DNA of 59,385 nucleotides, the filler included, from Dimargaris cristalligena (Eukaryota), in NCBI GenBank assembly GCA_003614675.1. It is 2 parts of 2 records of this genome, joined end to end, with 100 filler letters (N's around TTAATTAATTAA, not from the genome) between each part and the next. Parts side by side here need not be neighbours in the genome. Positions count along the whole stretch, not along the records: positions 29,782 to 59,385 come from ML002479.1; 1 more part is not named here. One strand, written 5' to 3'. The position numbers and the translations under genes were made by a program. Below, piece after piece: positions 16,931-55,273 of this stretch. The notes under the pieces were generated by a model. That model searched no databases, was not told the origin of the DNA, and worked only from the letters and a program-made list of their open reading frames with translations. Every line of letters begins with the position of its first letter. The first letter of the stretch is position 1.

Positions 16931-19093
16931 GGTTTGGAGGGGGTGGTAGTAGTAGCAGAAATAGTAGTGGTGGTGGTGCTAGACGCAGAGGCGGCAATAA
17001 ATGATGGAGAGTAAGGAGAAGAAGCCAAGCAGGGGTAGCGAAGGGGGGGAGGGAGCAGCGACGGGAGTATTTGTATTGATCAGTCGGAGTATATGGCAGA
17101 AGGAAGGAGTGATAAATTGGAGGTGGCTGGAATCACAGGCAAACCCAGTAGACTGGGTGGGAGAATAGTAAATGGTGTGACGGACGAGAGTGGTTGCTGA
17201 TCTAACAACGGGCCTTCATAACCTTCCTTACTAGGGTCCAGGGCTAATGCATGAGCCTCTTCTATAGGCACACTGGTTAAGGCTTGTTTTCATATATCTG
17301 TCCATACGGAGATTCATAGAATGATTAATATATATATTATATTATATATACATCCACCAGCCAATACAATGACCAACCCATTCATTATTAATCATCCGGC
17401 TTCTTGATACTACTATACTCTACCCCTTGCCAAATACCACGTAAATCGATGCTCCACACTTTCCTCTTCACTCGCCCAGATTCACTCCTCCTGCCACCAC
17501 CAGTGTGTGGGTGTGCACCACTCTCCTCCACCAGCTGGATCCATCTCGGTTTACACCAAAAAGGGATTGTCGTCTGGTTATTATTATGGTGATTATATTC
17601 TAGTCGGATATCACTGGCCAGTCCTCTCTGCGCCACACTCTCCGCCATTAGGGGGCAGGGTAATATTAAGGTATTATTTATTAAATGTTTTATCTATAGG
17701 GAAACAAGGTAAATGAGGAAGGATATAAAGTAGGCCTATGGGGAAAAGGTTTCCTCCCCCCTCCTCCTGCTGGTCGATACACTCTCCCCCTCCCATTCAC
17801 TTGGGCGCGCGCGCGAGTTGGTTTTAACCCTCTAACACATATCCCTGAGGGCTAGTGTGTCGCAAGGATTCACCGTAACTATTAGTCCACACTCCGAACC
17901 CGTACCCAACCTAAATCAGCGACCCTCCCATAGCTTACCAGGCACCCCATCATTCAACCAGCCCTGGAGCTACCACAACCAAGGCGTTCGGGATTCCCAG
18001 CCAGGGTATTACCATCCCGCCTCCTTCCCGACCTGTACCTGTTGTCTTCCTTCCCGTCTACGATGAAACAGGTAGTAGAGTCAGGAATACCGCCCCTTTA
18101 TCCCGCGCAACCTTCGCTAAATTTGCAGTCGAATAGACAGACCGAATAGATGAACGATCAAGCTGGAAAAAAGGGATGATTATTGATTATAATATATATA
18201 TGTATATATATATAAATGGCGGCCCGGAGAAAATCGGCGGTGGCGTACACCCCGCTCGAAACTCCGACCCTTCGTAACAGTCGTGCGGATTAGGGTGCGC
18301 ACTGTTAGAGGATGATCGGTGGAGTATATCCCTTCTTAACCACATTGCCTGGTTCCGGTGGCATGTGGGTAAACACGTCAACCTTGAGCACCCGGAGGCT
18401 GTTGGGCTCGACTCCCCCTCCAGACAGCCAGCGGGGGGAGATGTGTCTATTTCCCTTTTTACTAATGGATGGATGGATGGGTGGGTGGGTGGATGGGGTT
18501 GTCCGCCGGGTAGAATGAAGTTTTTTCCCGGTTTCTGCGGACCGTTCACTGCCATCATTATTTACGGAGCCGCTACAGGTCGTCTGGTTCATAGTCATCA
18601 TGAAGCAGGAGACGGACTAGCCTACATTTACACACTAGACCAGGCAAGCCTCCCCTTTTCGGAGCTTCTTCTAATTTAGTTTTGATTTTCATCATAATAG
18701 TTATTGATATGCTATGCCTGTGTGCCGTCACACCTATATTTAAAAGAAAAGGTATACCATTCCCCTTTAGTTTCTTCACGGACTTTCGGTTTATGGACTA
18801 GCAGTAGTGACCACTGGTGTGCCTTGATTGTCGCTCCCGTTTTTAGTCGCTAAAATCATCATAACAAAAACAATAACAATAGTTACCACTAAGCCTTGTC
18901 CCACTAAAACCCCCCCAATGAAAAGAGAGCGACTGTGTGGGTGGGAGGAGCGGCCGTTTGTTTATGAATCTCGCCAACCCTACCTGTCGTCGCGTATCCC
19001 TCCTCCCCAAGAGCCCTACTGCTGAATCGGGAGAATAGATCGCCTATACTTTTTGGAATTCAAAGCTCCCCTAACTACAATATTACTGCCAGG

Positions 19094-22757: not shown

Positions 22758-23699
22758 AGGCGGGGCCAGAAGGGTTTTATTGTAGAGCCCCCTTTTATAT
22801 ATATTATATTTTGATCTTGGGTGTTGTTTCCCCTCCTTCCTTTTCTTTTCTTCTCTTCCGTCCTCTCTTGCGTAATGATTTCTACGGGTAGATCCGACGA
22901 ATATCTGTATCCTTGATGCGTATTAAATATACTATATGGGAGAGCTGTTGTGCTGTGAGTCACCGGGACGGCTGTATATTAAATGTATGAAGGGCGTGAT
23001 GGATATAAATGACATGGGTTTAAAGCACGAGGGTGGTGGCTTTTAGTTTAGGAAGAGGATATATTCTCGTAAGACCAATCATCTCCAGCAGTTGAGGGTT
23101 CTATAAGAAGAAGTCAGACTAATTAAATGAAATAACGGGCTTTTATCAAGTCCGTTGGGGGGAGGGGTGTGTGACTTGCCTCGATAAGCCTGACCAATTA
23201 ATACGGGCCACAGCGACACACCTCCCCACTTGCAGTGCAATAGAAGGTTGAAGGGTGTGAGTCGCTAATTGATCGCGAGGACTAGTGTGATATGGCGACG
23301 GGTTCTCGGCTTATATTGATTGGTGAGGGTAAAATAGTATTAGTGGGGTCGCCGCCCTAAGAATTTCCACTGGCTGATGGTGATGGGCGCGGACTGCTAT
23401 AGGTATTTTCTATTACTTGTGCCATTTCCCCCACCCACGGCGAAGTGAAGGAGGGGGGTGCGCACTGTTTACCACCCGTTTTCCCAAGGCGTTAAAACCC
23501 GTTGCGACAGTGTGCCTCCTATCAGCGCAATAGACGAGACCCCCCCTCTCCTGTCACTGTCACGTAAACCCAAACTCTACTTCCCTCTTCCTTCCCCTAC
23601 TAGACAGACGACTATTCGGGTTTTTGGTGATTTCGAACCCTTCTCCTTCATCCCGCCGTTATTGACGCTATATATCGATACAAGCGTATATATCCGACC

Positions 23700-29781: not shown

Positions 29782-29836
29782 CACCTAGTCCTTCATAGGT
29801 AGTCGGCTTTAATCCTTTAGATTATTAAGCACGACA
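29782..29836 (-). repeat. 3' LTR (truncated by gap)
   Basis: Identical to 36140-36194. Confidence 0.93.
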
Positions 29837-29848
29837 TCATTCCCCATT
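29837..29848 (-). promoter_or_regulatory. Polypurine tract overlapping the ORF stop
   Basis: Minus strand reads AATGGGGAATGA immediately before the LTR start TGTCGT. Confidence 0.7.
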
Positions 29849-32800
29849 AGACTGGGCTTCGTCCTCGAGCCCTTGAATATAAGGAGCTAATTGAGTGACA
29901 GGGACACGCTCCCGGGGTAGGCGAGTATTATGAACTGCTGGCTCAATTGTATAGGTATTGCCTCCATGTACATCCACAATTGTTACAGGCCCGGCATATC
30001 GGAAACTTAATTTTGTAGGGTCAGTAGGGATCCGGACCATTGCCTGATCACCACAGTGATATTTGATAACTTCAACAGGTATCGGTTGAGAAGGTACATG
30101 TCGAACCATATTATATGCATGGGCTAATCGGTCTCGTAATTGGTCGGTGTACTCGGATCCCGTGGGTGCTGGGTTGGGGTTGATCTCTGGAGTTAATGCA
30201 ACATCAATGGGCATTCGAGGGTCTCGTCCATACATGAGGTAAAAGGGTTTGTTTCGTATGGGGGAGACATAGGCCGTCCGATAGGCAAATAGATGGTAGG
30301 GTATATACATATCCCAATGCTCAGGATCATCAATGGCATATTTAGCAATCATGTGGGACAAGGTTTGATTCAATCGTTCAACTGCACCATTTGCTGCAGG
30401 ATTATAGGCTACTGTAGGGCGATGATTAACTCCTAATAGGCGAAGTACATGCCTTAATAACCGGGATACAAATTGAGGGCCTCGATCAGAGATAAGGACC
30501 CGGGGACATCCATGAATGCAAATGATTTCCTCTAGGATAAAGTTGACTACATCCTGAGCTGTAATGTGCGGTACAGCCCGGGCAAATGGCCACCTTGTGA
30601 AGTAATCAATGGCTACAATGACATACCGGTTTGAACTTTCAGCCACTGGGAATGGTCCTAATATATCAATTCCCACACGATCCAAGGGTGCAGTTAGAGG
30701 GCTTTCCGTTTGGGGCTGTGGTACAGTCTGGGATCGATGTAGTTGGCAGGTAGGACAATTACGTACATGTTCTTGGACATCCTTTACCATAGTGGGCCAG
30801 TATAAAGATTGTTGGAGACGATGCTGTACTGTAGTAGTGCCTAAATGGCCAGCCCCCATAGCTTCATGGGCTGCAGTGAGGGCAGCCGGACGGTGTACCG
30901 CAGGTAGGTATAGGCGATTGATCCCATTAATTGTTTGATATACCAATCCTTCTTGAATAATAAAGGTTTGGCCACGGCCACGAAATGATTGTTTGGTTTT
31001 GTTCCCCATCCGTTGAATTAGGTTATGAACTTCTGGATCGTTCTTTTGGTCGAGACCCATTTGGTCATTGGCAACAGATATTAGAAAGGCTTTTGGTGCA
31101 GCTTCTTCAATCACTACGGGATTCTCCAAGGAAGGCCTATCTGTAGAACCAAAACTACCATCCCCTCGTTGAGTATTATCCAGATCAGCTACTTCCACTA
31201 AATTGGGGGTTGCATTGGGGATAAATAGTAGTTGGGCAATCTTTGCCTGGGGCATAAGGGTGTACTCAGTTGCAGTTAGATTATGTAGGACCACAGATAT
31301 TTCCCCTCGGTAATCACTATCTATAATCCCAGCGCGAATAGCAATACCCTGGATTCCTAATGAACTTCGCTCCCAGATCTGGGCATGATACTGGGGTGGC
31401 ATTTGAAGAGCCCACCCAATAGCAACAGCTTGAAAACTGTGAGGACTAAGGTGGACTTTCCGGTAAGTATATAGATCATACCCTGCTGACCCTGGAGTAC
31501 CTCGATTTGGAAGGGTAGCCTTAGGGTGGCATCGACGAATACAAAACTCTAATAGACTTTCAGTATTCAAGCTATTTACCATTACCCCATCTGGTTCGGA
31601 TAGTGCAGTGGGTAGGGCTAACCGGGATAATCCATCAGCATTATTGTGTATTCTCCCAGGCCGGTGATGTATTTCGAAATCGTAATCTTGGAGGGTGAGA
31701 TACCATCGTTCCAAACGTCCAGAACGAGGTGTAGTTGATTGTAACCACTTCAATGGAGCATGGTCAGTTTCCAAGATGAACTTACGGCCATATAAATAGG
31801 GTCGAAATTTCTGTAGAGCATACACTGCAGCTAGGCATTCCTTTTCAGTGACTGTATAGTTCTTTTGGGCTTTCTCCAGACTGGCACTAGCATATGCTAC
31901 GGCATATTCTTCTTTCCCTTCCCGCTGAGTTAGGATGGCACCCACACCATGATCGGAGGCATCTGTTTGCACAATGAACTGTTTGTTGAAATCTGGGTAG
32001 CGTAGGATGGGATTGGTGGTCAGGGCATTCCTTAGGTCATCAAATTCGGCCTGTTCAGCTTTACCCCAGGTAAATGGGATACCCTTTTGCATTAATCGGC
32101 GTAAATGTGTAGCCCTCATTGAAAATCGAGGTACAAACCGCCGGTAATAAGATGTGAGCCCAATGAAACTTTGTACACCTTTGAGGTTAGTTGGTGGTGG
32201 CATAGCCCGTATGGCTTCAAGTTTTTCAGGGTTGGGTCGAATTCCTTCCCGAGATACCATGTGGCCTAGGTAAGGTACACAATCAGCACCAAAAGTACAT
32301 TTACTCTTCTTAAGCTGGAGGCCATGTTTTTGAAGGGTACGAAGTACTTGTTGAATATCCTGACAGTGTTGTTTAAAGTCCGGGGAGAAGATAATAATAT
32401 CATCTAGATAAACTAGACAGCAGACATTAATATGCTCACCCAAGACCTCATTCATTAATCGCTGAAAAGTGGCTGGGGCATTGCACAATCCAAAAGGCAT
32501 TACTGTAAATTCATACAGTGCATCACCAGTTGTAAAGGCAGTTTTCTTGATGTCACCGGGCTCCATGGGAATTTGCCAATACCCAGAAGCTAGGTCCAGA
32601 GTAGTAAAATATCGGGCAGATCCCAACCGGTCAATGGCTTCTTCGATACTAGGTAGGGGGTAGGCATCCTTTCTGGTTACTTTGTTTAATTTTCGGTAAT
32701 CTACGCAGAACCGAGTAGAGCCATCCTTCTTCAGTACTGGGGTAATGGGACTTGCCCAGGCACTATTGGAAGGCTGAATGACCCCATTTTCCAACATTTC

Positions 32801-35611
32801 CTGGACTTCCTTGACTAGGTTTGCCTTTTTTGCCCATGGTGTCCGGTAGGCCCGACTTCGAATTGGTTTTGTATCAAGCAACTCAATTTGATGAGTGGTA
32901 CTAGCAGTTACATGGGGTCTTTTAGGGTTCTCTGCGAAGAACCCATATTTACTGACCAGTTTGGTCAAAGTTTCCCGCTCCTCTGAGGTTAGTTGTTTTC
33001 CTAAGGGGAGGTCAGTGGGCATTGTGATTTCAGGACTAGCTGATACAGTTGCTATCCGAGTTTTGGGCATCAATACTATAGGTTCCCCAGTGGGATTCCT
33101 AACCATAACCTGGGTTTCTTGGTTGGTAAATGCAGCTATTCCTTCCAGGGCTCGGGTGGTATGGTGGTGCAAGGAATGCACAAAAGCAGTCACTGGTACA
33201 GGGCCATCAGCTCGGACAGGGGTAGCTACTAAACCTCCAGGAGGTATAGTTGTTGGGTGGATTACTCTGAGGGTAGTCTGTTGTCCACCCAGGGCCAGTG
33301 TTCGGCGGGCAATATCAATAACTGGCTGGGCCTGATCTGCCCAGTTGGTCCCCAGTAGAAAACTTCCATGGGGTAATACAGCAGCAGTAACTGGTACTAC
33401 TACTGCTCCCACTGTTATTTCCACTTCCACATAGCGGCTGACTGCAATACGTCTCTTATCGCCTAGTACAATGTACCCAGAGCCTATGGGGGGTATATTC
33501 TTGACCTCCCGGGGTAAGAGAGACTCCGGGATAACTGAGATTTGGGCCCCCGTATCTAGTACTGCTTCACGGGGTTCCCCATTAACCAGAACATGGATTT
33601 TGTATTGTGATCCAATATCTGTAGCAGTAACAGCAGCTACAACAGCATCAGATTCATCCTCGGTAGCCAAGCTACTGGAGGAGTCCTCTTCTGAGTCATA
33701 ATCAGAAGAAATTTCAACTTGTTGAATTTTGGGGTTTTTCCTCTGAGGGCAGTCGGCCATGAAATGTCCAGTTTTTCCACACTTGAAACAGGAACTGGAG
33801 TTCTTTGCCGGGGCTTTGCCTTGGGTTGGTTTATCCTCACTAAGAGCTGACTTTTCTTTACTTGATTGTTGACGGTTAGTTCGGTGGTCTTGGTAATGTC
33901 CTGGTGATTCAAACCGGCGAGACTGGCGTTCATAGTCTCGGATATAGGATGCATTAAGAATCCTCTCATGGACCTTATGGTACAACTCCTTCCAGTTGGT
34001 ATAGTCATTGTAGATAAGGGCATCAAACCACTTAGATGGAAGGACCCTCAAAAGGTGGTACTTGATTTGGGATTTGTCTAACCCAATTGACTCCCCAAGT
34101 GAGATGACTTTACTAAAGTAATATAGATACTCAGTCTTCCTGTCCCACTTGGCCTTGGCTAGTTCTTCCTGAATACTGGCATAGCGGTTGACACCTTCCA
34201 GTTCTTCCAGTAGTTGGTCTCGGAAATCACTCCAACTTTTGATGTTTTGGTGAAATGCTGTATGCCAATCTCGAAGGGGGGCACTGATTGCACTAAGGGC
34301 TTCTACCAGGGTCTGTACAGGGTCCCATCGGTTGGCTCTGGCTACATAGTCAACCTGAATAGTCCAGGTCCTAACACTAGTAGTATCACTTTCCCTAAGC
34401 CTAGGAATACTCTTGGGTCCAATTACTAAGCCAGTGGGTTGATCATGACTATAACTGTAGTTTTCCAGGGTATGGCGACTCTGAGGGGTGGGCCTATGGT
34501 TTCGAGGTCCAGTACTAGGCAGTACAAACTCATCATTCTGATAACTGGACTGAAGCCTCGGGGTAGGTGTAGCTGTACAGTCTGTTTCCTTATTCTGATG
34601 AGGGGTGGGGTTCATGGTCAGTAAGTTGAATTTCCTGGTCATATCCCGCTGGATTTCCCGCATTACTTGCAGGGTTTCTTGGTTCTGGCTGTCCGTCCGT
34701 GCCCATCGCTCTTCCATAAGTGCTGCTTGGTCACTCTGGTTCCTGATAGTATCACTGAAGATTCGGAGGGAGCTTGCCATCTCTTCCTGGGTCTTCTGGA
34801 TCCTTGCCAAATTTGAGTGCATGAATTGTAGCTCACTTTCCATGGCTTGCTGACGTCCTTCCTGCTGCCGTACCTGTTGTTGGAGTTCTGTCATCCTGAC
34901 TGCTTCCTCGGTGACTATTTGGCGTACTGCAGGTGTTCCTAGCATTCCAGCAATAGTTTGATTTAAACTGTCCGTTGCTGGCTGTGCTCTTTGCTCCTGG
35001 CTGGATCGGCCTGCCTGATTAATCCGCGCCTGCTGAGTGATCCCCAACAGCTGTCTTGCTGATTCGTTGATTGACCCTGGCTGATCCCTGTTGGATCTTG
35101 CCTGATCTTGGGATACTGTACGCTGTTGACTTGGGGCTGGGGGTCTACCTTGACCCCGAAATTGTTGACCAGTACCTTCAGTCATTCTGGTTCCAGTAGT
35201 AAAGTCGAACTGTCCGATTGGTTCACTTTGTAATAACTGGACTGCAGTCTCACTAGACTGGATGGGTGCTACTTCGATTGGTTGGTTTAACAGATTACCA
35301 ATAGTAGGTGTGGTGGTGCTTACCCCAGAAGTAATTATACTTGTTGGCCGGGTTTGCCCACCAGTTCCTTCACAAGGAATACTAGCTTCACTAGTGGCCA
35401 CTGTCCTAGTAGGCTGGAGCTGTCTATGATTTCGCTGGTCGAACTCCTGAGTGCTATACTCGAAAATTTCCGCTGTTATACGTTGTTCCTCTTCTGTCAA
35501 TGACTCTTCCTCTGGGGCACTTATTGTAGCTCGCTGGGACCGGGTTGCTGAACGAGTTCGGGTGGCTATTCCTTCACCTGGGTTGCTATCCTTGGTGGCT
35601 CTTCGGCTCAT
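29837..35611 (-). CDS. Gag-Pol polyprotein: Gag/CCHC, protease, RT, RNase H, dUTPase, integrase
   Basis: CFKCGKTGHFMADC; LDTGA; LDLASGYWQ, MPFGLCNAPATF, YLDD; TDAS, TDHAPL, ADGLSR; dUTPase motifs; H..GH..CPTC, GIDILGP, SDRGPQF, VERLN; GPV. First ATG at 35611; no stop or frameshift. Confidence 0.96.
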   Translation of the reverse strand: MSRRATKDSNPGEGIATRTRSATRSQRATISAPEEESLTEEEQRITAEIFEYSTQEFDQRNHRQLQPTRTVATSEASIPCEGTGGQTRPTSIITSGVSTTTPTIGNLLNQPIEVAPIQSSETAVQLLQSEPIGQFDFTTGTRMTEGTGQQFRGQGRPPAPSQQRTVSQDQARSNRDQPGSINESARQLLGITQQARINQAGRSSQEQRAQPATDSLNQTIAGMLGTPAVRQIVTEEAVRMTELQQQVRQQEGRQQAMESELQFMHSNLARIQKTQEEMASSLRIFSDTIRNQSDQAALMEERWARTDSQNQETLQVMREIQRDMTRKFNLLTMNPTPHQNKETDCTATPTPRLQSSYQNDEFVLPSTGPRNHRPTPQSRHTLENYSYSHDQPTGLVIGPKSIPRLRESDTTSVRTWTIQVDYVARANRWDPVQTLVEALSAISAPLRDWHTAFHQNIKSWSDFRDQLLEELEGVNRYASIQEELAKAKWDRKTEYLYYFSKVISLGESIGLDKSQIKYHLLRVLPSKWFDALIYNDYTNWKELYHKVHERILNASYIRDYERQSRRFESPGHYQDHRTNRQQSSKEKSALSEDKPTQGKAPAKNSSSCFKCGKTGHFMADCPQRKNPKIQQVEISSDYDSEEDSSSSLATEDESDAVVAAVTATDIGSQYKIHVLVNGEPREAVLDTGAQISVIPESLLPREVKNIPPIGSGYIVLGDKRRIAVSRYVEVEITVGAVVVPVTAAVLPHGSFLLGTNWADQAQPVIDIARRTLALGGQQTTLRVIHPTTIPPGGLVATPVRADGPVPVTAFVHSLHHHTTRALEGIAAFTNQETQVMVRNPTGEPIVLMPKTRIATVSASPEITMPTDLPLGKQLTSEERETLTKLVSKYGFFAENPKRPHVTASTTHQIELLDTKPIRSRAYRTPWAKKANLVKEVQEMLENGVIQPSNSAWASPITPVLKKDGSTRFCVDYRKLNKVTRKDAYPLPSIEEAIDRLGSARYFTTLDLASGYWQIPMEPGDIKKTAFTTGDALYEFTVMPFGLCNAPATFQRLMNEVLGEHINVCCLVYLDDIIIFSPDFKQHCQDIQQVLRTLQKHGLQLKKSKCTFGADCVPYLGHMVSREGIRPNPEKLEAIRAMPPPTNLKGVQSFIGLTSYYRRFVPRFSMRATHLRRLMQKGIPFTWGKAEQAEFDDLRNALTTNPILRYPDFNKQFIVQTDASDHGVGAILTQREGKEEYAVAYASASLEKAQKNYTVTEKECLAAVYALQKFRPYLYGRKFILETDHAPLKWLQSTTPRSGRLERWYLTLQDYDFEIHHRPGRIHNNADGLSRLALPTALSEPDGVMVNSLNTESLLEFCIRRCHPKATLPNRGTPGSAGYDLYTYRKVHLSPHSFQAVAIGWALQMPPQYHAQIWERSSLGIQGIAIRAGIIDSDYRGEISVVLHNLTATEYTLMPQAKIAQLLFIPNATPNLVEVADLDNTQRGDGSFGSTDRPSLENPVVIEEAAPKAFLISVANDQMGLDQKNDPEVHNLIQRMGNKTKQSFRGRGQTFIIQEGLVYQTINGINRLYLPAVHRPAALTAAHEAMGAGHLGTTTVQHRLQQSLYWPTMVKDVQEHVRNCPTCQLHRSQTVPQPQTESPLTAPLDRVGIDILGPFPVAESSNRYVIVAIDYFTRWPFARAVPHITAQDVVNFILEEIICIHGCPRVLISDRGPQFVSRLLRHVLRLLGVNHRPTVAYNPAANGAVERLNQTLSHMIAKYAIDDPEHWDMYIPYHLFAYRTAYVSPIRNKPFYLMYGRDPRMPIDVALTPEINPNPAPTGSEYTDQLRDRLAHAYNMVRHVPSQPIPVEVIKYHCGDQAMVRIPTDPTKLSFRYAGPVTIVDVHGGNTYTIEPAVHNTRLPRERVPVTQLAPYIQGLEDEAQSNGE
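31140..31550 (-). other. Trimeric dUTPase domain within Pol
   Basis: Motifs I-V: AGYDL, ERSSLG, GIIDSDYRGE, KIAQL, RGDGSFGST. Confidence 0.95.
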
Positions 35612-35706
35612 GGGGGCGCAGTGGTCAAAATGGGTGGCCGGTAGGTTGAGTAGGTAGGTTGATAATAGAGGGAGAAGGCAGTGGGTAAGAAAATGATCGA
35701 AATTGT

Positions 35707-35718
35707 GGTCCTCCACCA
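35707..35718 (-). promoter_or_regulatory. Primer-binding site, probably tRNA-Ala
   Basis: TGGTGGAGGACC begins 1 nt inside the LTR end; TGGTGGA is complementary to the UCCA-CCA 3' end of tRNA-Ala. Confidence 0.7.
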
Positions 35719-35719
35719 A

Positions 35720-36194
35720 TGTCGTAGGCTAAATTCCACAATATGCTAAATGGCTACGCTTCGGACAAGTTTACAAGAGCTAACACACAGGCAGTTGATG
35801 CGAAGGGCGCTTTATAGATAAGAATAAGGGAGATATCTAATAGATTGAGTTAACTATAAAAGGGGGTATAGAATAAATGGTAATTAACTGAAGAGTAACT
35901 ATAGGAATTGGCTCGGCTTTATATAGCCGAGCAGACTAATGGTAAAGGCATCAAACCGGTATAGAAGATGCTGGAAAACGCTACTAGATAGTAATATAAA
36001 TGATAACTAATAATAGACGGGTATATAATGAAGGTGATATATAGAATATGTGAATCGAGTGGCGGGAATGGCTGAAGGATGCTGATCCTTCAACAAGGCC
36101 GAATTCCCGCGCCTCCTTGATAGAACTAGGTGATGATGACACCTAGTCCTTCATAGGTAGTCGGCTTTAATCCTTTAGATTATTAAGCACGACA
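35720..36194 (-). repeat. 5' LTR (475 bp)
   Basis: TG...CA ends with a 6-bp terminal inverted repeat; TATA-like TATATAAA near 35918-35925 on the minus strand. Confidence 0.95.
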
Positions 36195-36690
36195 GGCGGT
36201 CCCCGCCATTTCAATAAAATTCGCATTTTCTCGACAGCTGAAGTGGCATGTTGGGATGGAATGGGTCTAATGGTACAGGGTAAAATGGTATCCCTTGCCG
36301 GTAGTTACAATTGCTCAGTAACAATGGGGTGATAAATGCCGAAACCCTAAAGTAAAAGCCCAGATCTGACTACGCCTGTCTAGAGGCCCGGTAAGCATGG
36401 AACCACCAGCCCGTTGTCGTATAGCACTGACTCTAATGAATGGAATGCTCTTCCTTATCCCGCCCTTGGCTTTTTTGATACTGTGAAACCGTCTAGTGAT
36501 AGCCCACCGGAAAGTCCCCTAGATGGAGGTAGATGTTTTTCTTAATTTTTCGGTCAATCGACCTCCACTCAAGTAAATACATTTGTTTGAGTTTCCAAGT
36601 AGTGGATTGTAGCAGCAGCCCCCCATGAGGTAAACATATGGAGGCATCATCGCCCCCCTCTTGGTCATAAGTTCCACTGACACAGATTAT
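36195..36690 (+). repeat. Dispersed repeat, copy A (inverted relative to ~54775-55273)
   Basis: Near-identical to the reverse complement of copy B; identity decays toward 36690. Confidence 0.93.
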
Positions 36691-38182
36691 GAAATATCAT
36701 ACTGTATATATCACTTCCAGAAAAAAAATCGGAATACCCCCAGCCATTTTTGTCATTTGCATTGACCTGCTTAGACAGTACAATTGTATGACCGTCCATA
36801 TTGATGCACTACATACTTACTTTTTCAGACTACTAGTATGACCCATTTCTAAAAGCCATCCACACATTTCCCCTGGCTTTGATATATTTTAAATCCGTAG
36901 CCCTCTCCTCCAACATTTAACTTAACCAAGATTTAATTGCCCGATAATAGTAAAATCTGCTGGCAATAGTATTCTACTTACTCTCTTGGTTGAATATATT
37001 GCTAAGCAGTACATGTCGTCAATAATGGCGATAATAAAGACCCCGATGTTTGCCGATATGGTAGCCTTATGGTTAAGCAAGTCCCCCATCCCTTTCCAAA
37101 GCTATTCCCAGTAACCTTATGACTGGGTCCCTGGCTAAAGGGTTGCGATGCTTCAAGGACGCCATTTTTTTCCTTACTCGCTACCATGCGACTTCCAGAG
37201 ATATCCTTATCCATCTGCACATCACACATGGCATACATCAAATGCCAGTATCTACAAGAGGAGAGACTCGGTACCACCTCCCTAATCTCATAAAAATTCG
37301 GCGCGTGAACTTAGAATACCTAGTAAGTCGGAAGACAGCTAGTTGCCAAATATTTTGGTTATTGCAGCTTTGCCCGCCCAGCCCTTCCACCTAATCCCCT
37401 AGCAGTCAGTCGGTTCTATAGCGATTAAAAGATCTGGTAGGTATTTTTCTCGTGCCCTCTGTATCCCCTCTTTGTACTGCGTCTATATAGGCCGCTTAAC
37501 TTACAAAAGGGGTTAAGATATAGCAGCCATTACTTTTATATATATATATTTAGAATAGCTCGGGTATAATTAGGACACGGGTATTACATTAAATATAATG
37601 TCAATCTTCCCTTATAAAATTATTTAACCATTACTTACAGCCATCGACCATTCGGCCTACTATATCCGGTCAGCTGCAGCTAATCGTAGAACACATCTCA
37701 AGCACCAAATCTCACCCCAAAGCTTGAAAGCGAGTAATCGGAATTTCCGGATTTGTGGTCGCCGCGATAGATTTGGTTGATAATGCATGAGAGAAGTTCA
37801 TTCAGGCTGTATAACGAAAAATCCATTGGATGAGACCAAGATTACTGGTTAAAAGCTATTCTCACATATATTCACCCATGCACGTATTATGTAAACCCTT
37901 ATATAGCTGGTTTGAATTTCACCTATATTAAATTAAGCCGCCCAGCAAAAGCTAGCCTTGGCCAACAGCAGTGATTAAAAGTTCATTAATAAAAATAAAA
38001 AAACTTTTTTAAAAAAAATATGAAAATAACACCTGACGCCCCTGGCCTTTTAGGAAAGGTAATAATATTATTAAAAGTATATATAGATTCTTCGGTTTTA
38101 AATGTGTCTTAAGGAGCACAGCCCAAAAAATAAGAATAAAAGAATTCGATGACCAACTTCGCGCACGCCGGACCTACTCACA

Positions 38183-44710: not shown

Positions 44711-44777
44711 CCCGAGCTGCCCAACCCTGCTAGGGCTCATTTGGGAGTTTATACTTACCCCTCCCCCCCAAACACAC

Positions 44778-44812
44778 ACATACATACATACATACATACA
44801 TACATACATACA

Positions 44813-44848
<36 letters not shown>

Positions 44849-44856
44849 TATATATA
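44778..44856. repeat. (TACA)n plus (TA)n microsatellite
   Basis: Visible tetranucleotide run followed by TA repeats. Confidence 0.95.
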
Positions 44857-47312: not shown

Positions 47313-49478
47313 ATGAAATTCATTGGTACGTGGCCCACGAATATCCCGGCGTTATTCCGAATCCCCTGGACTGCTTTACCCATGCTAACACTAAAGTCCG
47401 CAACTCTACCCCCTCGGCATTTCCCCTCCCTTCCCCGGCCTGGGCCACCCGTAGACATTGGCGCCAACCTTACCGATCCCGTGTTCCGCGGTCTCTATCG
47501 CGGCAAGCGGTCCCACCCCGGTAAGCCAAACCGACTCTTCTCCCCCTGACCATTAGAGACACTTCGACTCCCTCGGTTATTGGTATTCTGCCTTTAGAAT
47601 TATGGAGGCCTAATAATTGTCAGCACCTATCCTCCTAACCCCATCCAGACGACTTTGATCATGTCCTCGCTCGGGCCCAACAAGCTGGCGTTGATAAAAT
47701 TATTGTGACCGGTGGTTCACTCTCCGAAAGTCGCGAGGCTCTCGATTTAGCCAAAAATCACGGTAAGCGCCCCCCCTCCCTTTTCATCTGCGTCAGACCC
47801 AACCCCCCGCAGTGCGTCATACTTTCCGCCTCTCCTGCTCACCCCTCTATACTATATGATTTGGTTCCATTTTTAGACAGTCTCTTTTCGACGGTGGGCT
47901 GCCACCCTACTCGCTGCTCGGAATTTGAACAAAAGGGTGATCCCGAACGCTACTTCGCCGATTTACAGGACGTAATCCAATCCGATCAAGGGAACAATGT
48001 GGTGGCCATTGGCGAGTGTGGACTTGGTAAGTGAAGGGTTGATCTTTCTACCATGCATCGGTCCCATCAAGCGGACGTCTAATATATCTGCCATTGTATT
48101 ATTTAGACGTCATTTTATGAACCTCTCGAGTCTTTTATGGAGCAACCACTCCTCCATCGCTCCGTCATTTCACTGCATTTGGCTGGGAAGCAACCCCTAG
48201 TGCACTAATTAACTGGGCCATTACTACAATTACTTTGCGCATCAACCATATGTATAGACTATGACCGCCTGCAGTTTTGTCCCAAGGATATCCAACTCAA
48301 GTAAGTGTCAGCTGAATAGTATCACTTTTAATTTCTAGTAACTTAGGCCGTGAGTGATATATACTATCTATCACTATTTTCCCACTCTTGCCCCTCGCAT
48401 TTCCAAACCTAATCAAATAACCCCATTTCACCTGCCTACCTTTCATTTCCTCCACTATAGATATTTCGAAAAACAAATCGCCCTGGCCGAATCAACTGGC
48501 TTACCAATGTTTCTACACAATCGAAACACCGGGTCTGATTTTATCAATATCCTCATTTTTGCCATATCCTGAACATCCGGGCTATGTTCCCCCTCCTAGA
48601 AAACCCCATCAATTTCTGCCTTCAACCTACTAATCTATCCCATCCGCCACTCCAAGTGTAGCCTTAACTCCATCCCATGCAATCCCGGCGAATCGGGTGT
48701 ATTGTATTATGTATTTTTGTATTTGCATAATATCCTCTCCCTCTCCGCCCGTTCCCCCTTTGATCCAATGTTTTTAACCAACACATATTATGCGTCAGCA
48801 CCGGCACCGAGTCAGCCAAGGTGTGGTGCACAGTTTTACCGGGCCTATGGACGAATTGAAGGAGCTCTTGACCCTGGATTTATACATCGGAATCAACGGC
48901 TGTTCCCTGAAAACCCAAGAGAATATTGATGCCATGCTGGCAATTCCGGAGGACCGACTATTGATTGAAACGGGTAAGTTATTACTTTGTTTTTCCGATT
49001 ACCCGGGTTTCCTACAGCGTGCCTGTTTTCTGAAATGTGGAGGCTCCTTTTGTCTTTAATACAAAATTACACCGTCCAAGACTGTAGATGAACAACCGCC
49101 GCGTTTTGACACTATACCTACTAGTATGTCTGATCTAATCGCCCCATCCCGTGCACGTATACTTATTTTTCACCATGCTTTGCTACCCTTTTTTTTTACC
49201 CGATCCTAGACGCCCCCTGGTGCGATATTCGACCTACTCATGCCAGCCACGCTCACCTGACGAAATCCGATGGCTCGGGAGAGTGGACCCGCATCACCTT
49301 TGAGAGTAAGAAAAAGGAACGTTTTGTGGAGGGTCAAATGGTAAAAGGTCGAAACGAACCCTGCACCATTCAGGATGTGATGCAGGTAGTGGCTTCGGCG
49401 AGAGGTGCTGACCCCGTTCGGCTGGCCCAGGTTATTATTGATAATACCAATAGGGTATTTTTCCCATCTAAGGCCTAG
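47313..49478 (+). CDS. TATDN1: TatD-family nuclease (TATDN1-like), 8 exons including one AT-AC intron
   Basis: MKFIDIGANLTD, TVGCHPT, AIGECGLDYDR, LPMFLHNR, GVVHSFTG, IGINGCSLKT, ETDAPWC and KGRNEP. An in-frame upstream ATG exists at 47277. Confidence 0.93.
48547..48784 (+). other. U12-type (minor spliceosome) AT-AC intron
   Basis: 5' ATATCCTC, branch-like TTTTTAAC (48771-48778) and 3' AC. Removal gives DFINIMRQHRHRVSQGVVHSFTG. Confidence 0.88.
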
Positions 49479-49935
49479 CCAATGCCTCCGCGTGGCATGG
49501 TGACTTCCACCTATAGAATTCTTTCCAAAAATTACTTTCTAGATTAGGATAAGTGACAGCGTGGATAAGGGTGATGTGCTTGTTTGTTTTCGCTTTTCTT
49601 GAATCGGAGTCTGAATGATACTTACTATTGATCTACATAGTATATAGTATATTAACTTGTTTGGCGCTTGTATGGGGGTGCTGCAGGGTAAATCCGAAGC
49701 GTGCTTTCCAATACATTGATCCGCCATAAATACTGGTTTAACGTTTAATAATTATCGTGAGATGGGTCAAATTAATAAAATACTTAAATGTGCCAGTTAT
49801 GGCATTTACAATGCACTATGCGAAGAAGAGACCAAACGAAGGAGATGGATATGAGAACCAGACTCTACAGTGGCCTTAAGCAAGACAACAAAGCCCCACT
49901 ATTCGAGATGTAATAGTTTCGGGTGCCTACTCGAC

Positions 49936-54155: not shown

Positions 54156-54774
54156 GGCAACTGGATGGGGAGGGGGCACAGGCGTTTGGATAAGGCTCGA
54201 TGGAATTTACACAAAAAAGGAAACGCTGCGATAGAAGAGGTAGGTGAGGGATGGGGTTTTCTCAAACTTCGAAATTAGGGATACAATAATTAACAAGGGG
54301 GGGGGCTTTGGTCGGGCAGGTGGTATGAATAATACTTGTGGTGAGGGCAAGGGGAACGAGATGTACTTAAGCTGGCCCATACTCTGGGGGCTGGTGGGCC
54401 TAATAATTGCCGGGGATAGCAAATAAGGCTCTGGCTTGGGTTTGGTCAAGCTTAGTTGGGCAGGAGGAACAGGCCCCATTCCCTTAGAATCCATTGTCCA
54501 GGAACCCTGTTTGATTACCCAAAAAGATAAGCATATTCTTCAATTCGAAAGCCCTGCAGCATACTAAATAAAACATGAACAAACTGGATATAGTCTATTT
54601 CGGTATTGGGATATCCCCGTTGAAATATACATATAGATGAAATTCAAACTAGCTGTATAAAGGTATACATAATATGTGTATGGGATAATATGCGAGATAA
54701 AATATTTTAACCAATAACCTTGACCACATCTAATGGATTTTTCGTTATATAGCCTGCATAAAATTCTACTATAT

Positions 54775-55273
54775 ATCATAGTGTGCATCAGTGGAACTTA
54801 TGCTGAAGAGAGGGGCGATGATGCCTCCATAGGTTCACTAAATGGGGGGCTGCTGCTACAATCCACTACTTGGAAACTCAAACAAATGTATTTACTTGAG
54901 TGGAGGTCGATTGACCGAAAAATTAAGAGAAACACCTACCTCCATCTAGGGGACTTTTCGGTGGGCTATCACTAGACGATTTCACAGTATCAAAAAAGCC
55001 AAGGGCGGGATAAGGAAGAGCATTCCATTCATTAGAGTCAGTGCTATACGACAACGGGCTGGTGGTTCCATGCTTACCGGGCCTCTAGACAGGCGTAGTC
55101 AGATCTGGGCTTTTACTTTAGGGTTTCGGCATTTATCACCCCATTGTTACTGAGCAATTGTAACTACCGGCAAGGGATACCATTTTACCCTGTACCATTA
55201 GACCCATTCCATCCCAACATGCCACTTCAGCTGTCGAGAAAATGTGAATTTTATTGAAATGGCGGGGACCGCC
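54775..55273 (-). repeat. Dispersed repeat, copy B
   Basis: Reverse complement of 36195-36690. Confidence 0.93.

Follow-up and report, generated by a model that had tools for sequence, protein, structure and literature searches.

A 238-nt AT-AC intron, very likely a genuine minor-class (U12-dependent) one, interrupts the gene for a TatD/TATDN1-type nuclease in Dimargaris cristalligena, a fungus placed in the Zoopagomycota, Kickxellomycotina, Dimargaritales, the last being a little-studied mycoparasitic order. The gene lies at 47313-49478 on the plus strand of the stretch of DNA that we analyzed (59385 nt, two joined parts from assembly GCA_003614675.1, hereafter the window) and comprises 8 exons encoding 309 aa. 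The original prediction had placed the intron at 48547-48784, with U12-type motifs at its 5′ end and near its 3′ end, and both the coordinates and the motifs were reproduced, AT occupying 48547-48548 and AC 48783-48784. As had been anticipated, excision of this segment restores ..DFI-N-IMRQ.. at the spacing of the orthologs, and the flanking residues align without gaps with those of the Dimargaritales relatives (Dispira ..DFIDIMRQHRHR.., Tieghemiomyces ..DFVDLMRRNRPR..). The heptamer ATATCCT, of which the window holds 11 copies on both strands together, would fall at one of the 6 offsets allowed by the homology with a probability of only ~6e-4. The exon model by coordinates and the proposed splicing signals are given below, all on the plus strand.

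47313-47325, 47455-47520, 47649-47762, 47877-48026 (+): TatD exons 1-4
48258-48300, 48461-48546, 48785-48973, 49210-49478 (+): TatD exons 5-8
48461-48546 (+): exon 6, coding for the strand that bears the invariant His (..FLH..) and for the start of the next helix; ends after base 1 of an Asn codon (phase 1)
48547-48784 (+): AT-AC intron (intron 6 of 7), 238 nt, phase 1, proposed U12-dependent
48547-48554 (+): 5′ splice site ATATCCTC, matching RTATCCTT at 7 of 8 positions, with C instead of T at +8
48771-48778 (+): branch-site-like TTTTTAAC, matching TCCTTAAC at 6 of 8 positions, candidate branch A at 48776 or 48777
48785-48973 (+): exon 7, whose initial AT completes the Asn codon, followed by ..IMRQHRHR..GVVHSF..

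By homology, the host gene is a TatD/TATDN1 ortholog of an early-diverging, non-Dikarya fungus. A search with its last exon (88 aa) returned 123 proteins at E ≤0.001 among 158 candidates, 120 of them listed. The closest listed matches were two deposited D. cristalligena proteins, P0001 (100% identity) and P0002 (97%), below which ranked Tieghemiomyces and Dispira (Dimargaritales), then Mortierellomycotina, Glomeromycotina, chytrids, oomycetes and animals. Domain PF01026 is precomputed on these matches, and the motifs FLH and VVHSF, invariant in 38 orthologs, are both retained in our model. Of the 120 listed proteins, the 2 from Dimargaris and 21 others with lengths outside 270-400 aa were set aside, and from the remaining 97 orthologs we built a profile, against which the 8-exon model scores 501.5 bits. 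Particularly, the other six introns of the gene have GTAAG or GTACG donors and YAG acceptors, and intron 6, without a donor of this kind, stands out because all six of its sisters have strong ones. That the exon upstream of it had been labeled exon 6 proved correct, as starting at ATG 47313 with a first intron at 47326-47454 yields 8 exons. The upstream frame is also open through ATG 47277, the start in both deposited models; the start at 47313 with the intron gives an ortholog-like N-terminus (M-K-F-I-D-I-G) and a profile score of 501.5 vs 496.6 bits.

Borders of the intron and the deposited gene models

If exon 6 is read through, the frame reaches a TGA at 48570 after N-I-L-I-F-A-I-S, and on the other side a TAA at 48775 closes the downstream frame, which leaves 48778 as the earliest possible acceptor position. 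The original prediction had held that no GT donor precedes this TGA, which is not the case: GTs are present at 48509 and 48533. Its companion statement, that no AG precedes the next coding block, survives in part, as the gap does contain AGs (with G at 48599, 48656, and 48661), but from the TAA at 48775 to the conserved codons there is none, and the next one follows at 48798. To choose among splice sites, we combined all donors at 48470-48599 with all acceptors at 48700-48899 (26000 pairs) and scored the 4220 pairs that were in frame and free of stops against the profile of 97 orthologs, from which Dimargaris is excluded. The AT-AC pair 48547/48784 ranked first of the 4220 with 496.6 bits. Five one-base shifts of this pair encode the identical protein, and recognized termini occur only in 48547/48784 itself. 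The best GC-AG pair (48561/48798) reached 490.9 bits and the best GT-AG pair (48533/48815) 456.3 bits. Judged by these alignments, the AT-AC pair is the only splice with recognized termini that restores the conserved sequence, and we regard its borders as almost certainly correct.

The gene had been expected to be mis-modeled by standard annotation, and so it was: neither deposited D. cristalligena model is right at this junction, and a break at the same codon affects the models of at least 8 further named species. Model P0002 uses GT48533-AG48815, which keeps the frame and deletes 15 conserved residues, and model P0001 joins the donor at 48301 to the acceptor at 48815, so that exon 6 is skipped. 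In an AlphaFold model of the Dispira ortholog (38-sequence alignment, mean predicted local distance difference test score, pLDDT, of 96.5), the 15 residues cut from P0002 correspond to the entire helix 157-168, which sits between strand 147-152, carrying the invariant H150, and strand 172-174, which precedes the invariant H175. On this structural model, loss of the helix would be hard to reconcile with a working TatD barrel. P0002 also exchanges the conserved C-terminal ~30 residues for a tail encoded near 49650-49718, past the normal stop (region 49388-49718); probably the gene was mis-annotated here a second time, or it has an alternative 3′ exon.

The splice chosen in P0002 is the most obvious competitor, in which the real intron would be GT-AG 48533-48815 and the protein simply 15 residues shorter. 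It has canonical termini, keeps the frame and was selected by public annotation, and TTAAC at 48774-48778 could act as its U2-type branch, ~37 nt upstream of AG48815. Nevertheless, it scores 40 bits below the AT-AC pair, its donor GTCTGA is unlike the other donors of the gene, and the skipped residues are conserved in relatives in both sequence and spacing. Moreover, the skipped DNA still codes for the helix in frame on either side of the AT-AC intron, and we consider this splice very unlikely. The GC-AG pair 48561-48798, also 238 nt long, would replace ..NIMRQHRHR.. by ..NILIF-HRHR..; being the second-best recognized pair, with TTAAC located 21 nt before its AG, it has some merit on paper, but its donor GCCATA is a poor match to the U2 consensus, it exchanges I-M-R-Q, identical in Dispira, for residues unlike those of any relative, and it would turn the presence of the IMRQ codons directly after the AC into a coincidence. 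We find it barely conceivable. Finally, the break in both public models at this very junction might be taken as a sign of a pseudogene in decay or of a mistake in the assembly, the AT-AC appearance being accidental. A gene with eight exons that are all open and conserved (501.5 bits), supported by deposited proteins from two differently tagged annotations that agree with the exons of the window, does not fit this description. The break point recurs in other genera, and the U12-type heptamer stands exactly at the homology junction, with the probability of ~6e-4 given above, which makes decay or misassembly a most unlikely explanation.

The same junction in other fungi and in oomycetes

Cross-species evidence on the intron comes exclusively from back-translation of deposited protein models around the split codon, that is, the Asn after ..DFI. 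Looking for short relatives, we obtained 271 proteins at E ≤0.001 among 280 candidates, 120 of them listed, and the best matches listed were N-terminal fragments that end just after the split codon, where x-I-L gives way to unrelated residues and then a stop. Such fragments come from D. xerosporica (P0189), Funneliformis geosporum (P0190), Entrophospora sp. (P0191), Diversispora epigaea (P0192), and Basidiobolus ranarum (P0194), P0227 and P0232 are of the same type, and the tails of these fragments are the translation expected from read-through of x|AT ATC CTN. The F. mosseae model P0108 reads D-I-L-Q and rejoins the homology one residue short, and the nearest full-length relatives have LI, MI, MV, or IM at the two positions after the split codon. 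In two species the gene was apparently deposited as two fragments: in F. geosporum these are P0190 and P0017, split at the junction, which bear consecutive gene numbers (12979, 12980) and lie on contigs of equal size (15032), and in B. ranarum they are P0194 and P0125, again on contigs of equal size (39918), P0125 beginning at a Met right after the junction.

The 3′ side carries a signature of its own. The Glomeromycotina models P0009, P0010, and P0017 show His in place of the usual Asp or Asn just before the homology resumes, and read-through in the window likewise gives ..T-H before IMRQ. This residue fits C as the last base of the intron, because CAY encodes His whereas an intron ending in AG would produce GAY (Asp). 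Among the listed matches to the last exon, 5 of 7 Glomeromycotina proteins are aberrant or truncated at or beside the junction, the normal ones (2/7) being those of Rhizophagus and Glomus cerebriforme. Taken at the protein level, read-through signatures of either kind (x-I-L or His) are found at the split codon in D. xerosporica, in Basidiobolus ranarum, and in 7 species of Glomeromycotina. The D. xerosporica protein shares 74% identity with that of the window over 159 aligned residues and its tail keeps I-L before diverging; because I-L is kept despite this level of identity, constraint on the 5′ motif is suggested.

A different signature is present in a set of oomycete-like proteins, P0037 (Globisporangium splendens), P0195 (Peronospora destructor), P0221, P0237, P0265, and P0299, in which Gly stands at the split codon and the residues after it are unrelated. 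Their tails back-translate to U2-like donors starting with GT (GTAAY, GTGAG and others), so these sequences seem to carry a GT intron (G|GT) that shares the alignment position and the phase-1 signature of the Dimargaris intron and differs from it in having GT-type donors instead of ATATCCT. Such introns would fit either a minor-to-major conversion or an independent history. On the protein models compared here, the TatD intron was most likely inherited and not newly gained, it probably dates from the common ancestor of Zoopagomycota and Glomeromycotina, and we think it likely that it is shared by descent with the intron of Basidiobolus and Glomeromycotina.

Spliceosomal class and machinery

The consensus used for U12-type introns, /RTATCCTTT at the 5′ end and UCCUUAACU at the branch site, was taken from PMC2846911, according to which U12 introns lack a pyrimidine tract. 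The 5′ site bears out the original prediction in matching RTATCCTT of that source at 7 of 8 positions. Near the 3′ end, TTTTTAAC is present as had been announced, and the A that could serve as its branch point, 48776 or 48777, is 9 or 8 nt upstream of the exon's first base, in agreement with the short distance noted beforehand. On its own this motif is weak evidence: octamers with up to 2 mismatches from TCCTTRAC occupy 0.4% of positions, and a motif scan of the window showed that loose matches to the branch site arise easily. The branch site differs from the consensus by two C-to-T changes, which would still permit G-U pairing with the U12 small nuclear RNA (snRNA).

We infer that Dimargaris uses the minor spliceosome and possesses its machinery. 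By the known U12 pathway, the U11/U12 di-snRNP (small nuclear ribonucleoprotein) would recognize ATATCCTC at the 5′ end together with TTTTTAAC near the 3′ end, U11 would then be replaced by U6atac, and splicing would restore the helix that links two metal-binding strands of the TIM barrel.

Several observations weigh against this interpretation. With C at +8, the strict 8-mer rule given in PMC2846911 is missed by one base; TTTTTAAC matches at only 6 of 8 positions, and so loose a match at a suitable distance has a probability of ~0.05; and a branch A located 8-9 nt from the 3′ end is close to it. No U11, U12, U4atac, or U6atac snRNA was found in the window with Rfam models, either at the gathering threshold or at E up to 10, a result that is uninformative at 59 kb. 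In the comparison among species, I-L is native in much of the family: it is present in 52 of 233 motif-bearing proteins, only 8 of the 52 being of the read-through type. The cross-species argument thus leans on the near relatives with LI, MI, MV, or IM, because I-L is native in so many members. Three models from the closest genera (Dispira 2, Tieghemiomyces 1) are intact and give no sign of an odd intron, which is uninformative either way. TATDN1 is also absent from the supplement text, possibly incomplete, of the vertebrate-centered minor-intron catalogs PMC6717393 and PMC11347168.

U2-type AT-AC introns exist, and they have a U1-like 5′ site after the AT. The Dimargaris intron shares the AT-AC termini with them and differs in starting with ATATCC, a U12-type motif; compared with the U1-binding GURAGU, ATATCCTC shares only +2 and +3, so it does not have the 5′ site that defines a U2-type AT-AC intron. 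Still, the intron could be real and yet be excised by the major spliceosome or some degenerate system, the minor snRNPs of Dimargaris having been lost. The lack of minor snRNAs in the 59-kb window and a branch site that is weak and close to the 3′ end agree with such a scenario, as does the heavy loss of minor introns inferred for the Zoopagomycota ancestor in PMC10639083. What makes it unlikely is the 5′ motif, which pairs poorly with U1 (by the consensus in PMC2846911) and is seemingly kept both in a second Dimargaris species, at 74% protein identity, and in lineages with documented minor spliceosomes. Across the eukaryotes surveyed in that paper, moreover, U12 introns and U12 snRNAs occur together (PMC2846911). 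We therefore retain the minor-class assignment at the strength given at the outset.

Minor splicing is documented in other early-diverging fungi. In PMC10639083 and PMC11347168, minor introns and snRNAs are reported from Basidiobolus (249 or 237 introns), Rhizophagus (205), and Neocallimastix, and no minor introns are reported from Ascomycota or Basidiomycota. The U12-type AT-AC introns of Rhizophagus irregularis (205) and Basidiobolus meristosporus (249), described by Larue and Roy 2023 (PMC10639083), resemble the TatD intron in their ATATCCT 5′ end, their AC 3′ end and a branch-like TTNAAC near it, in a phase other than 0, and in being the one unusual intron of an ancient housekeeping gene whose other introns are canonical; the broken Basidiobolus and Glomeromycotina models suggest that even the position is identical. 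The differences are that the Dimargaris branch site TTTTTAAC is weaker and nearer to the 3′ end than the usual consensus, that the host belongs to the Dimargaritales, and that the intron is absent from both deposited annotations. The survey in PMC10639083 includes Dimargaris cristalligena and scores annotated introns only; it would not have counted this intron, because the intron is missing from both annotations. Dimargaris is not among the species of PMC11347168. The literature that we searched contained no report of minor splicing in Dimargaris or Kickxellomycotina and none on a minor intron in TATDN1, and, judged by title or abstract, none of the D. cristalligena papers listed deals with it.

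Internal motifs, the rest of the window, and significance

The intron contains further motifs of the U12 type, again on the plus strand.

48564-48570 (+): second ATATCCT, 17 nt downstream of the first, within copy 2 of a 17-nt tandem repeat
48662-48668 (+): CCTTAAC, a better branch-site core, mid-intron, 117 nt from the 3′ end
48730-48736 (+): third ATATCCT (ATATCCTC), 55 nt before the end of the intron

The tandem repeat comprises the exon-intron border (48535-48551 and 48552-48568, 76% identical). On the plus strand, the window has five ATATCCT heptamers, three of them inside the intron (48547, 48564, and 48730), and dinucleotide shuffles of the intron give P = 0.002 for at least 2 extra copies, in a test that was post hoc. 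In animals and plants, tandem U12-type 5′ splice-site repeats that bind U11, known as the USSE, regulate genes for minor-spliceosome proteins. The TatD intron shares with the USSE the extra sense-strand copies of the 5′ motif in one transcript (48564, 48730), and differs in that these copies lie inside a U12-type intron of a nuclease gene. By analogy, they might act together with CCTTAAC as extra U11/U12 sites, decoys or enhancers of the USSE kind, tying TatD expression to minor-spliceosome activity, an idea that we rate as improbable. If true, USSE-like control would be found in a lineage of fungi with no more than a few minor introns left.

We discarded splicing in nested or recursive form via the internal ATATCCT or CCTTAAC motifs: no AG or AC is found 8-21 nt after the mid-intron CCTTAAC, and the alignment does not need a middle exon, for which two frames would be open. 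We also rejected an introner-like repeat, as the window holds no other copy of the intron, and judged a 17-nt similarity between 48504-48520 and 48765-48781 to be due to chance.

A search for a second U12-type intron in the window found RTATCCTY 15 times vs 9.0 expected, which is not significant, and no candidate was accepted. The site at 22907 (+) follows the stop of a mitochondrial carrier gene and is apparently non-coding. The candidate at 17262-17726 (-) has, on motifs alone, the look of a U12-type AT-AG intron, with ATATCCTTCC and, 443 nt later, GCCTTAAC located 16 nt before an AG, and its flanks are not coding-like.

By gene content, the window is otherwise ordinary fungal nuclear DNA. 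It contains genes for Rgp1, a metallo-beta-lactamase-fold protein, a Cdc27-type DNA polymerase subunit, an MFS transporter, a KAT11-type histone acetyltransferase, the mitochondrial carrier, an aminomethyltransferase, Vps23, CDC20, Hat1, a signal peptide peptidase, and a PLD-like protein, as well as a gypsy-like retroelement. No tRNA was found in the window, and an (ACAT)20 microsatellite at 44774-44854 explains weak sub-threshold Rfam matches to mir-297, mir-3149, and sno_ZL1. The retroelement has a single unbroken frame of 1963 aa at 29837-35728 (-) with protease, reverse transcriptase, RNase H, an inserted dUTPase, and integrase. Positions 29782-29836 and 36140-36194 form an exact direct repeat of 55 nt, and the adjoining 503 nt (36195-36697) recur inverted at 54771-55273 with 96% identity, the 503-nt pair possibly representing a long terminal repeat and a solo copy.

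U12-type AT-AC introns are known from early-diverging fungi, and what is new here is an instance in the TatD gene of Dimargaris, not a new kind of intron. Its immediate consequence is a correction of the gene, both public D. cristalligena TatD models lacking part of the catalytic barrel. Beyond this, the intron provides indirect evidence that the Dimargaritales still use the minor spliceosome. The junction is split, truncated, or mis-spliced in the models of at least 10 named species of early-diverging fungi, which amounts to a systematic annotation failure. Because of such mis-modeled junctions, surveys of annotated introns, the method of PMC10639083, would under-count minor introns in these lineages. 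If the shared position is true at the DNA level, the TatD intron would become a marker for following the retention and loss of minor introns and their conversion from U12 to U2 type in fungi and oomycetes.

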